A stretch of DNA of 64,000 nucleotides from a virus (taxonomy: Duplodnaviria > Caudoviricetes). Location: positions 10,614-74,613 of IMG/VR virus record IMGVR_UViG_3300033066_001102; one strand, written 5' to 3'. A program made the position numbers and the translations under genes. Positions 55,247 to 60,565 of the stretch are shown piece after piece; within the stretch, counting starts at the first letter, position 1, and every line of letters starts with the position of its first letter. The notes below the pieces were generated by a model. The model searched no databases. It was not told where the DNA came from and saw only the letters and a list, made by a program, of their open reading frames with translations.

Positions 55247-55302
55247 TTGGCGATTTTGTCAGCACAATTATACTCCTTTTTTATTAGCAGTACATAAAAA
55301 AG

Positions 55303-55344
55303 GTATCGCATAGTACATTTTATTTGTACCGCATAGTACGTTTT
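55303..55344. repeat. Two 19-bp direct repeats, 23-bp period (gta[t/c]cgcatagtac[a/g]tttt)
   Basis: gtatcgcatagtacatttt at 55303 and gtaccgcatagtacgtttt at 55326. Confidence 0.85.
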
Positions 55345-55510
55345 TTATATCACACTTTCCCCTGCAATACCACGCCAGTAAGCCTCGTAGCACTCTGTTG
55401 ATTAATCAATAATAGAACTATTTTCCTGCCATACTGTCACTTTTAACAACCCAAACAATCAAACCATACCCCCGCCTAAAATTTTTACAAAATTGAAAGA
55501 CACGGCGCAG

Positions 55511-55569
55511 AGAGGGTAACCCCCCCCGGCGGCGCGGCGACCAGGGGCGCGGACGGCTCCCCCCCCTCT
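55511..55569. other. GC-rich island with two C8 runs closed by agaggg/ccctct; candidate packaging/terminus signal
   Basis: Sequence is directly visible; the function is inferred from its position upstream of the terminase operon at the strand switch. Confidence 0.4.
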
Positions 55570-55730
55570 TTGCTGCGAACTTTTGCAGCCAATAGCGCTA
55601 AACACACAGGCCAACACGACCGACACGAAAACGTACAGGCGGAACCGACCAGTCAACGACTGGAACTACCGAGCGGCCTGATCCTTTGCCTTGATGCAAT
55701 CCGAAGCGACCAATCCAATGGGCAGAGCTG

Positions 55731-55759
55731 ATGACTTTCGTCATGTGACTTTCGTCATG
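55731..55759. repeat. Tandem duplicated palindrome (TGAC-TTTC-GTCA) x2
   Basis: atgactttcgtcatg followed by tgactttcgtcatg. Confidence 0.8.
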
Positions 55760-56224
55760 TGCTGCTCACCGATCCTGCACATTCCGACCTTCAGACATGA
55801 TAACACCCTCCAAAACGTGACCATAGACGAACGATCTGCCAACGACCTGATAGATAGCACGACCTAATTACTGATGATGCAACCACGCAAGCAGGACACG
55901 CCAACACGATAGCAATTCGACACGACCAACAACGGCCAGATGGACACGGCAACAGTTCACACATGACCAATCCGATTGCGTTAACCTGCTCATGTTCAGT
56001 CCTGCCATCAGATTTTCAGCCAGTCCAGAAAATCCGAGTAAAAGACTTGCTATTCTTTCTCCAACAGGAGATTGCTCAATCCAATCCTTTGCGCAGTTTT
56101 GCCAAAACCTTATCAGCAATTTTAACAAACGTGATAGTATAATTCAATTTTCTTAATAAAATTATTCTACTGATAATCAGTAAGTTGTGCAGGTATTGCA
56201 AATAAAATTGAGATAGCGGGAACA

Positions 56225-56252
56225 ATGTTGAAAAGTTGGTTGTATATTGCAT
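56225..56252 (+). promoter_or_regulatory. Possible Bacteroidota-type early promoter
   Basis: TATATTG at 56243 approximates the TAnnTTTG -7 box with an upstream TTG; imperfect match. Confidence 0.3.
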
Positions 56253-56546: not shown

Positions 56547-56587
56547 CGATTAATAACTAACCAATTTTTTAAAAACCACAAACCACT

Positions 56588-57340
56588 ATGAACGACAACA
56601 CGAATTCCTTACATACCGAAATCCAAGATTTAGGTACACCTGTAACACAACCTGCCAAAGTGCGCAATAAATGCACATGGGCAGAAGAAGATCTGCCACA
56701 TTATAAGTTGCAGGCGAAGGGCAAACACTCGCTAACAGATCGGGAGCTATTGAGTATGATAATCGGGGACAATCCGCAAATAGCGGCACAATTGACTACG
56801 GCATTACTCGAGCATTTTAACAATAACCTTAACGCATTGTTTAAGAGTACAGCGCAAGACATTATGGGATTGGGAGTAAAGGGGATAACGCCGAGAATGG
56901 CGAGATTAATAGTAGCAGTTGGAGAGCTCGGAAGGCGCAGGACATTGGCACCAGTTAAGGAATTGCCGAAGATAACAAGCAGTAGGGAAGCATACGACAT
57001 TCTTTATCCGCACATGGTAGATATGCAAGTAGAGCAGTTTATGATATTGACATTGAACAGGGCAAACAAGGTAATCAATACTCACGTCATATCGTTGGGA
57101 GGATTAACAGGAACCGTAGCCGATCCGCGAGTAATACTACGGCATTGCTTACAGGATCAATCAACAGGGTTAATACTTGCGCACAACCACCCGAGCGGAA
57201 ATCTGAAGCCCTCAACACCGGATTTGGAATTAACGAAGAAGGTGAAATCTGGTGCCGTTTTCATGGACATATCCGTACATGACCACTTGATAATTGGAGA
57301 TGCAAATTATTTCAGCTTTGCGGATGAAGGATTGATGTAA
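56588..57340 (+). CDS. radC: RadC/JAB-domain protein
   Basis: W.EEDLP..KL..KG..SLTD.ELL, EQF.IL.LNRAN.VI, GGLTGTVADPR, ILAHNHPSG.L.PS..D..LT, VHDHLII. Confidence 0.95.
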   Translation: MNDNTNSLHTEIQDLGTPVTQPAKVRNKCTWAEEDLPHYKLQAKGKHSLTDRELLSMIIGDNPQIAAQLTTALLEHFNNNLNALFKSTAQDIMGLGVKGITPRMARLIVAVGELGRRRTLAPVKELPKITSSREAYDILYPHMVDMQVEQFMILTLNRANKVINTHVISLGGLTGTVADPRVILRHCLQDQSTGLILAHNHPSGNLKPSTPDLELTKKVKSGAVFMDISVHDHLIIGDANYFSFADEGLM

Positions 57341-57421
57341 AGAGTACCGGTGCGGGAGAGAGGATCGAATGTGTTCGTTACACACCCGCACCACACCTGA
57401 TAAAACCACAGGGATCAACAC

Positions 57422-57911
57422 TATGAAAACCACAAACAAGTTACTGCAATTCAAAGAGCAGAAGAAAAGCGATTGCTTCATTGTTACTGCAATGAGTAAT
57501 GATGATTATTGGAATGAATGCCCACTCATTTACTTCCGTAAGACAGAAGAACTCATGGAGCAGGTGAAAGCAGCCCACGATTTGCTAAAACAGGGAAAGG
57601 AGGGTAATCTTTCACGGGTTTACAGTATCAATATCTGGAATCAGGATGCGTACTACCTTCATGACAGCGAAATACAGGAAGACGATTTTACGGAAGGATG
57701 TGTGGACATCAACACCGTAAATCCGTATAATGGCAATAGCGGAAGGATCGAAGTAGAACCATTGACGGATGATGAACTTGAGCATATCGGCAATGAAATG
57801 AATACAGAAGCGGAATATATACAGGTTACGGAAAGGGGAATCTTTCGTTTTGTTGCTTACGTGAAGAACACCAACATTAAAATAAGTAGCGAGGACATTG
57901 AAATAGGTTAG
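57422..57911 (+). CDS. Acidic hypothetical early protein (likely start 57422)
   Basis: caacactATG leader; its stop codon lies inside hammerhead stem I. Confidence 0.7.
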
Positions 57912-57970
57912 CTGATGATGGATTGATTATCCGAAAGCAGGGAGTGATTGTATGCTTCCTGCTCCTAACC
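57906..57970 (+). ncRNA. Type I hammerhead ribozyme 1; predicted cleavage after C57964 (CUC)
   Basis: GGUUAG / CUGAUGA / extra U / GGAU-ugauu-AUCC / GAAA / GCAGGGAG-loop-CUUCCUGC / UC / CUAACC: full core and three paired stems. Confidence 0.92.
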
Positions 57971-57983
57971 AAAAATAACCACT

Positions 57984-58490
57984 ATGAAAACAATGGATTT
58001 TTTTTCAGCGACAAGACAATGCGGATCACGCAGGAATTATTTGAACCTCGCAGCAGCACCGAATGACGAGGAAACGATACGAGCCGGAGGAGATAAGGCG
58101 CTGGCTACTTTGGAATGTCAGGCGCTTATGGAGCAGCTGATCCGAGAACATGGCGCACCGCCCGATGGAGCCGAGTTCTTTATCATGGAGAACGCCCACG
58201 AATTTGGGACATATTACGAGCTGAACATTTTTTATGTTGAACCAGACGATGATGAAGAAGAAACCACGCCGAGCTTCGAATATGCGCTTCAATGTGAGAG
58301 CATACCGGCTAAATGGGACGAGCAATCAATCCAGGCATTGCGTAAAGCGGGGCACCCCGTTTATGCAGAAGCAAAGGAAGAAACGCCTAAATCCAATGGA
58401 ATGAGTATCAACGCAAGTTGGAGGGCAGATTTTGCAAGGGAAACAGCCAATCAAAAGCTGGGACGCGAAAATTACGCATGGGGCGATTAA
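57984..58490 (+). CDS. Uncharacterised acidic phage protein bracketed by two hammerheads
   Basis: ECQAL..QL.R, HEFGTYYE, P.KWD pattern; taaccactATG leader. Confidence 0.8.
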   Translation: MKTMDFFSATRQCGSRRNYLNLAAAPNDEETIRAGGDKALATLECQALMEQLIREHGAPPDGAEFFIMENAHEFGTYYELNIFYVEPDDDEEETTPSFEYALQCESIPAKWDEQSIQALRKAGHPVYAEAKEETPKSNGMSINASWRADFARETANQKLGRENYAWGD

Positions 58491-58555
58491 GGTTAGCTGA
58501 TGATGGGTTGAATATCCGAAAGCAGGGAGCGATTGTATGCTTCCTGCTCCTAACC
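58491..58555 (+). ncRNA. Type I hammerhead ribozyme 2; predicted cleavage after C58549 (CUC)
   Basis: Same fold as copy 1; the three differences are one A-U to G.U change in stem II and two loop changes. Confidence 0.92.
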
Positions 58556-58569
58556 AAAAATAACACACT

Positions 58570-59964: not shown

Positions 59965-59994
59965 TTCACTAACCAATTTTAAAACCATAACACT

Positions 59995-60288
59995 ATGAAT
60001 CTAATCACAAGTAATGCCCGACAATTCAATTCCTCGCTAAAGAAAGCGATCACGGAAGCGATAGGGCAAAAGGTCAAAGTAGAGATAATCAACTCATACA
60101 AATTCCCCAATTGTTGGGTGCGAGTACATCCGGAAACAACTTTCAGCAATGATTTCAGACTAAGAGTATTTGATGGATGTTTAAAAGACAGGAAGAATTT
60201 GCTTAATTCTGATGATGTTTCATACGGTAATATCCAATCGAATAGTATTTCTGCTTTAGCTATCAAATGGATGCGCATCTTTCCATAA
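59995..60288 (+). CDS. Hypothetical early protein
   Basis: Conserved leader aaccaattttaaaacc..cactATG. Confidence 0.65.
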   Translation: MNLITSNARQFNSSLKKAITEAIGQKVKVEIINSYKFPNCWVRVHPETTFSNDFRLRVFDGCLKDRKNLLNSDDVSYGNIQSNSISALAIKWMRIFP

Positions 60289-60343
60289 TTGTTTGTAATT
60301 TTAATTTTTAATTTTAAACCAATTTTAAAAACCATTTACCACT

Positions 60344-60565
60344 ATGCCACAGTACAAAAATGATCCGAGAGTAACTTACTCCAAGTTCAACAGCACTTGC
60401 GCGAAGTGCGGAAAGACCATCCGTAAAGGTGAAGAAATCGTTTACTGGCCCGCCAAGAAAGAAGCGATGCACCACGCTTGCGGGCAGCCTGACTTGCAGT
60501 CATTCTATGAATCCGCACAGGACGAGGACAACTACAATGCGCAGTTTCCTGGACGGAGTTATTAA
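60344..60565 (+). CDS. Small Zn-finger-like early protein
   Basis: SKFNSTCAKCG..I.KGE.I.Y.P...HHAC. Confidence 0.7.
   Translation: MPQYKNDPRVTYSKFNSTCAKCGKTIRKGEEIVYWPAKKEAMHHACGQPDLQSFYESAQDEDNYNAQFPGRSY

Follow-up and report, generated by a model that had tools for sequence, protein, structure and literature searches.

Introduction

The closest described systems are the hammerhead ribozymes of prophages. Perreault et al. [quoted passage not shown] The reading published for such clusters is the processing of polycistronic transcripts (PMC3088659), and in a review of 2019 the processing of mRNA with differential stability or translation is given as a suggested, unproven role (PMC6765202). 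The arrangement of prophage hammerheads on both sides of a single gene has been known since 2011, and the pair described herein leaves the knowledge of this class unchanged.

We analysed a 64,000-nt stretch of DNA (hereafter referred to as the window) from the 74.6-kb IMG/VR virus record of an uncultured phage, for which the completeness is estimated to be about 95%. A first-pass annotation, made from the letters alone, had proposed for this window a pair of type I hammerheads within near-identical 65-nt repeats bracketing one gene. The repeats lie within a co-oriented block of early genes, and we consider it fairly probable that the type I hammerheads formed by them cut the polycistronic early transcript by themselves into separate messages.

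Hammerhead motifs within two direct repeats

The two direct repeats, HH1 and HH2, are 65 nt each and differ at 3 positions (95% identical); their parse is given in Table 1 together with the genes and leaders around them. By a repeat search of the window, the duplication was extended to 75 nt (57905-57979 and 58490-58564) with 96% identity and a spacing of 585 on the same strand, and a third copy was not found elsewhere in the phage by either sequence or CM search. In both copies, every invariant base of the core is intact, together with the pairs G10.1-C11.1 and A15.1-U16.1 and with C17, which agrees with the requirement for a base other than G at this position (H17). The lengths of the helices are 6 bp for stem I, 4 bp for stem II and 9-10 bp for stem III. 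The differences between the two copies are A17G, which turns an A-U pair of stem II into G-U, U22A within loop II, and U40C, which turns the top pair of stem III from U-G into C-G. All three are structure-neutral, and with a neutral share of 35% among the possible single substitutions, three neutral changes out of three correspond to p ~0.04. The coordinates, the core and the three helices of the first-pass annotation all check out, and so does its statement that the pairing is spared by the three differences.

Table 1. Genes, leaders and predicted ribozyme parts at the HH1-ORF168-HH2 locus (window coordinates)
Feature	Position	Strand	Basis or remark
RadC-like JAB gene, head of the early block	56588..57340	+	Pfam PF04002, E 1.7e-39
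Upstream ORF (180 aa; 162 aa from Met19)	57369..57911	+	ORF list; gene call of the collection, 162 aa
HH1, predicted type I hammerhead, open stem I	57906..57970	+	parse, descriptor match, CM 99.6 bits
Stem I, 5' strand GGUUAG	HH1 57906-57911; HH2 +585
Core CUGAUGA (C3-U4-G5-A6-N7-G8-A9)	HH1 57912-57918; HH2 58497-58503
Extra U between A9 and G10.1	HH1 57919; HH2 58504
Stem II, GGAU/AUCC in HH1	HH1 57920-23 with 57929-32		HH2: GGGU/AUCC
GAA (G12-A13-A14)	HH1 57933-35; HH2 +585
Stem III, from A15.1 to U16.1	HH1 57936 to 57963; HH2 +585		A-U pair opens the helix
C17, predicted cleavage on its 3' side	HH1 C57964; HH2 C58549
Stem I, 3' strand CUAACC	HH1 57965-70; HH2 +585
19-nt A-rich leader of ORF168 mRNA after predicted cleavage	57965..57983	+	sequence
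ORF168, between the predicted ribozymes	57984..58490	+	ORF list; uncharacterised small-protein family
HH2, predicted type I hammerhead	58491..58555	+	parse, MFE = hammerhead fold, CM 98.7 bits
Equivalent 20-nt leader of the next gene	58550-58569	+
Downstream ORF, 128 aa, DnaA C-terminal-like helix-turn-helix	58570..58956	+	Pfam PF08299, E 3.5e-8

Statistical, folding and database tests

For the search of the window we employed our own strict descriptor, consisting of a stem I of 5 bp or more, CUGANGA, 0-1 inserted nucleotides, a stem II with G10.1-C11.1, GAA, a stem III opened by an A-U pair, and H17. It matched twice, at HH1 and HH2, across both strands of the window, and not once in 300 Markov-simulated windows. 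For the HH2 RNA, RNAfold returned the three-way junction of a hammerhead as the MFE structure (z = -3.6), and pair 15:27 of stem II was predicted with p = 0.91. The MFE structure of the HH1 RNA has instead a 6-bp helix, competing with stem II, between GAUGAU (from G5 to the extra U) and AUUAUC, within 57914-57931, which sequesters G5-A9 with p ~0.5-0.6; the same helix has p <0.01 in HH2, because two substitutions in stem-loop II abolish it. Since the competing helix of HH1 is absent from HH2, the two copies may differ in cleavage efficiency, and one of them may possibly cut slowly, as far as can be judged from these folding predictions.

The search of Rfam gave no match, either at the gathering threshold or at E<=10, for the window and for a 900-nt region, and RF00163 had no match in the whole phage. 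As a control, the same search was found to miss also the canonical hammerheads of two metagenome contigs, L009 and L015, and that of contig L004 (see below). The negative result with Rfam is therefore uninformative for this architecture. The Rfam model Hammerhead_1 (RF00163) agrees with the motifs described herein in its type I topology and core consensus, but the long stem III and the short open stem I of these motifs are poorly covered by its 45 positions.

Relatives and covariation

Using a CM made from the two window copies, we identified five further elements at 27-42 bits (in L015, L029 and L004, and two in L009), and decoys sharing stem I plus CUGAUGA had CM scores of at most 21.7 bits. 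One of the L009 elements, which was preselected by no pattern, was found by the CM, and its stem I, GGUUAA/UUAACC, represents a compensatory change. After alignment of all 7 sequences, which form a small comparative set (n=7) with stem I preselected in 5 of 7 and with the alignment fitted to the model, 99.1% of the cells pair and 11 of the 19 pairs show changes on both sides; in the controls, the observed pairing was reached by none of 500 shuffles, and slid partners paired at 20-49%. Taking the core, the three helices and the covariation in relatives together, the assignment of both repeats as genuine type I hammerheads is well supported in silico.

Scans of metagenomes and genomes with the pattern of stem I plus CUGAUGA gave 22 matches, among which real hammerheads were only those of L009, L015 and L029, the rest being rejected as hammerheads for being without both GAAA and the stems. 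L029 is a Terrimonas (Bacteroidota) MAG, and the CM search of 151 genomes of its family returned the seed only. The contig L009 carries on its minus strand two canonical type I hammerheads (L009:938-991 and L009:1799-1850) at a distance of 859 nt, which bracket two ORFs (172 and 87 aa). Each of the two hammerheads starts at the upstream stop, and the next ATG is found about 13 nt past its end. Judged from these positions and folds, L009 is an independent case of the same architecture.

The sole close relatives of the phage are the ENA/Logan contigs L004-L006, which were reached via a 72%-identical homologue of ORF168. The hammerhead of L004 is located 3' of the homologue of ORF162 and has stem I and the leader as in the window, while stems II and III differ; its stem II is 2 bp long with a C/A mismatch, or else has two bulges beside the core. 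Scans of IMG/VR with the exact motif, with stem I plus core, and with ORF168, RadC and terminase gave no informative relative. In the terminase scan, a record of 16.2 kb (L042, IMGVR_UViG_3300033121_001142) gave a match 100% identical to the window's terminase; by coordinate arithmetic this record ends at about window 57400, approximately 500 nt short of HH1. Neither tRNA nor tmRNA was found in the window, L004, L009 or L015.

Position of the motifs relative to stops and starts

The upstream stop UAG (57909-11) falls within stem I of HH1, and the stop UAA of ORF168 (58488-90) directly adjoins HH2. With the predicted cuts placed 3' of C17 and the next ATGs at 57984 and 58570, leaders of 19 nt (after the HH1 cut) and 20 nt (after the HH2 cut) would be left. 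The predicted RNA between the two cuts, 57965-58549, is 585 nt long and includes ORF168 as its sole ORF. On all these points the first-pass annotation proved accurate, as it had placed each repeat at or right after the upstream stop and the cuts 19-20 nt before the next ATG, and had described the RNA freed by double cleavage as carrying exactly one ORF of 168 aa. The leader of ORF168 is homologous to that of its L004 homologue (the blastn block begins at window 57967) and is similar to those found for other early genes of the window.

A/T-rich leaders conforming to (C)TAACCAATTTTAAAAACCA...ACTATG are common to several early genes (56550-56587, 59965-59996, 60318-60345, 57965-57983 and 58550-58569), and the 3' strand of stem I, CUAACC, runs into this leader motif. 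The early-gene leaders are without a Shine-Dalgarno sequence. Because such A-rich leaders lack a Shine-Dalgarno sequence, the host of the phage is probably a member of Bacteroidota.

Gene organization of the early block

The + strand at about 56.2-61 kb is tightly packed with co-oriented small genes, including RadC, ORF162, ORF168, the gene for the helix-turn-helix protein and, later, a C5 methyltransferase gene. From 56.2 to 60.9 kb, the + strand showed no terminator-like site, and the scans for sigma-70 and Bacteroides -7 motifs were uninformative. The ORF upstream of HH1 probably starts at Met19 (57423) and then encodes 162 aa; this ORF162 is 39% identical to L004:4776-5288, and the alignment starts at Met19. 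Two non-coding segments of this region were also noted. One is an intergenic element, about 80 nt long and conserved, located 3' of RadC (window 57341-57422 and L004:3507-3588), which became visible only once the start of the 180-aa ORF was moved to Met19, and which consists of a long hairpin GGUGCGGG...CCCGCACC around a small inner hairpin, followed by a 4-bp hairpin before the ATG. The other is a non-coding segment of about 1 kb (window 55250-56250) located where the structural and early arms diverge, with a C/G-rich tract at 55500-55570 and repeated words similar to CGACACGA/CCAACACGA; it may serve as an origin or have a regulatory function.

The ORF168 family includes 535 representative clusters (50% identity) at E<=1e-3, the members of which are often located beside RadC in small-gene arrays, and P26, E29, C31, G35, E44, C45, H72, W111 and D112 are near-invariant. 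Ten ORF168 homologues gave no match in Pfam, and ORF168 itself had no match in PHROG or among PDB sequences. Its AF2 model has a pLDDT of 89, with no significant match by Foldseek against PDB or in ESM Atlas. A borderline Pfam hit of ORF168 to HK97-gp10_like (E 4.4e-4; 21.6 bits, the cut-off being 21.4) was set aside.

The order of genes is RadC-ORF162-hammerhead-ORF168-hammerhead in the window and RadC-orfX-element-ORF168-element-ORF162-hammerhead in L004, where the element is a three-way junction RNA. The block of homology for ORF168 between the window and L004 extends from within the leader (57967) exactly to the stop codon, and the blocks break at the intergenic elements. The L004 element, which is present also in L005 and L006, is a structured RNA of about 70-90 nt found in two copies, L004:4096-4167 and L004:4687-4775, flanking the ORF168 homologue; each of its two hairpins shows a single compensatory change when the copies are compared, and the junction strands (GUCA... 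and CCCUUCGYUCAAACC) are conserved. It had no match in Rfam, even in a search with 111 nt, and no further copies in IMG/VR, where only chance matches within coding DNA were obtained. Since it takes the slots where the window phage has hammerheads, we consider this element a candidate functional analogue of the hammerheads, possibly a self-cleaving or processing motif. New self-cleaving classes have previously been found through such positional association, and this unclassified three-way-junction RNA around the same gene is the more open lead from the present analysis.

Departures from the ideal ribozyme

In the strict form of the core, G10.1 follows immediately after A9. Both window copies have the G-C pair, and one extra U intervenes; none of the four canonical relatives has this U, and L004 has C at this position. 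Located beside the A9/G10.1 metal site, the extra U may slow cleavage. An inserted nucleotide at 9/10.1 is found in the (+) hammerhead of CChMVd (A10), with a moderate decrease in rate, and is conserved in the hammerheads of Penelope-like elements, and natural hammerheads carrying it are active (PMC1636495, PMC4209133). The extra U is therefore a known variant and does not exclude the motifs from the hammerheads, and the statement of the first-pass annotation that such a nucleotide is tolerated in nature is documented by these active examples. The CChMVd (+) and Penelope hammerheads agree with the window motifs in the position of the extra nucleotide, in G10.1-C11.1 following after it and in the otherwise canonical core; they differ in coming from a plant viroid and eukaryotic retroelements, whereas the inserted base is U and the context is a phage mRNA in our case.

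Fast cleavage of hammerheads at cellular Mg2+ is usually conferred by tertiary contacts between stem I and loop II, in the form of a loop-loop contact or a pseudoknot. Across the 7 sequences, the complementarity between loop II and the flank showed no recurrent pairing, a clear match of at least 5 bp being present only in one, L009a. In one L009 hammerhead, a stretch complementary to loop II (UUAAU), AUUAA, is found 4 nt past stem I, and a pseudoknot may be formed.

These departures bear on the view that the motifs are derived from hammerheads but catalytically weak or dead, being retained as stable intergenic hairpins for 3' protection or as sites for RNases or proteins, and as repeats for recombination. 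The insertion at 9/10.1, the lack of recurrent pairing between loop II and the flank, and the competing helix of HH1 are all in line with this view, as are the 2-bp stem II of the L004 hammerhead, the presence of other structured elements in the same intergenic slots of L004, and the breaks of homology between the window and L004 at these elements. Against it stand the intact invariant core of both copies with three neutral differences only (p ~0.04), the activity of natural hammerheads with a nucleotide at 9/10.1 (PMC1636495, PMC4209133), and the frequent activity of core variants from prophages (PMC3088659). We regard this view as rather unlikely, and self-cutting of the early transcript as the reading to be preferred.

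Possible fate of the RNA between the two predicted cuts

Cleavage by hammerheads leaves 5'-OH and 2',3'-cyclic phosphate ends. After double cleavage, the ends of the 585-nt RNA could be joined by RtcB of the host or by hammerhead ligation, and the ORF168 mRNA would then be circular, resistant to exonucleases and translatable; a potentially circular mRNA had been suggested in the first-pass annotation. The unit is indeed bounded by a tandem same-strand pair of type I geometry with a spacing of 585 nt, a Bacteroidota host could supply the ligase, as RtcB is present in the control genome of Bacteroides thetaiotaomicron, and the same route is used by retrozymes and viroids (PMC6765202). The search of the phage, however, found neither RtcB nor an Rnl2-type ligase, and for the tandem hammerheads of prophages, Perreault et al. 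looked for spliced or circular products without detecting any (PMC3088659). Furthermore, the two ends are brought together in sequence only by the 6-bp stem I, and no coding capacity is gained by circularization because ORF168 has its own stop. The first-pass annotation was correct that an intact hammerhead is rebuilt at the joined ends, but this gives no evidence for a circle, since it is true of any tandem pair. We therefore consider the circular mRNA very improbable. If it did exist, a dsDNA phage would possess a natural circular mRNA that codes for a protein and is translated during infection.

The closest parallel for such a circle is given by retrozymes and viroid-like RNAs, in which direct repeats, each with a hammerhead, likewise yield by double cleavage a ligatable unit-length RNA (PMC4918200, PMC7229834). 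Their units are non-coding and have been seen as circles, with tRNA ligase or RtcB as the joining enzyme (PMC4918200, PMC7229834), and retrozymes need reverse transcriptase. The unit analysed herein is instead a 168-aa protein-coding cistron within an operon of a dsDNA phage, and no RVT_1 match was found in the phage, so that it differs from retrozymes and viroid-like RNAs both in coding content and in the reverse transcription or RNA replication on which these depend.

Origin of the gene arrangement

The ORF168 module stands elsewhere in the gene order of L004, with homology starting in the leader and stopping at the stop codon, and the ends of stem I, GGTTAG/CTAACC, loosely recall integron core sites. 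Both points could be taken in favour of the mobile ribozyme-flanked cassette proposed in the first-pass annotation, which would move through RNA, in the manner of a retrozyme, or, as integrons do, by site-specific recombination. This reading is hardly credible, as the RVT_1 search found no reverse transcriptase in the phage, the ORF168 homologue of L004 is flanked by a different element instead of hammerheads, the two sampled distant homologues (L038 and L039) are without hammerheads, and mosaicism of phages at conserved intergenic sequences is ordinary. The survey of ORF168 homologues for flanking hammerheads, which had been suggested together with the cassette, thus turned out negative for L004, L038 and L039, the contexts of the last two (RadC-linked small-gene arrays) giving neither a hammerhead nor an Rfam match. 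The attC sites of integrons have the consensus order RYYYAAC...GTTRRRY; the likeness to attC was rejected, as the order GTTAG...CTAAC is reversed and both hexamers miss the consensus. On the comparison of sequences, the difference in gene order between the window and L004 and the breaks of homology at the elements represent ordinary DNA-level shuffling of modules, that is, phage mosaicism with breakpoints at the intergenic elements, and give no support for RNA-mediated or integron-type mobility.

Proposed role in processing of the early transcript

The motif itself, its fit to the hammerhead family, the covariation in relatives and the position with respect to stops and starts, all described above, point to processing of the early transcript, for which the events within the infected cell would be as follows. 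HH1 and HH2 would be transcribed as parts of the early block together with RadC, ORF162, ORF168, the helix-turn-helix protein gene and others, and each motif would fold co-transcriptionally and cut itself on the 3' side of C17. The message upstream of each cut would then end with the stable stem III hairpin of 9-10 bp and a 2',3'-cyclic phosphate, and the message downstream would start with 5'-OH 19-20 nt before its ATG, its A-rich leader being released from stem I. The early transcript would in this way be split at the boundaries ORF162/ORF168/helix-turn-helix gene, after which the stability and translation of the pieces could differ. Studies of the glmS ribozyme have indicated that 5'-OH is destabilizing in Bacillus (RNase J1) and stabilizing in E. 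coli. As the effect of 5'-OH on decay depends on the RNases of the host, the messages of this phage may be affected in either direction.

The pair represents a compact case, in which two near-identical ribozymes, as predicted, are placed around one small gene with cuts 19-20 nt before the starts and with a natural variant of the core. The two substitutions that make or remove the competing fold in one copy only provide a built-in comparison, and the pair could serve for measurement of the effect of ribozyme cutting on mRNA stability and translation within an early block of anti-defence type.

Comparison with the prophage hammerhead clusters

The claim of the first-pass annotation that the early transcript is cut into monocistronic mRNAs agrees well with the reading published for prophages (PMC3088659), its circular form being left without support. 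As in the clusters described by Perreault et al., same-strand intergenic hammerheads are located around single small genes of varying identity, and an early context of anti-restriction type is common to both, with RadC and C5 methyltransferases in the present phage and ardA in the prophages. For these clusters, too, a role in processing was proposed and circles were considered. The window pair differs from them in the extra U, in the 95% identity of its copies, in stem I holding or abutting the stop codon and in its probable Bacteroidota host, and its ribozyme activity is a prediction, whereas the prophage hammerheads have been found to cleave.
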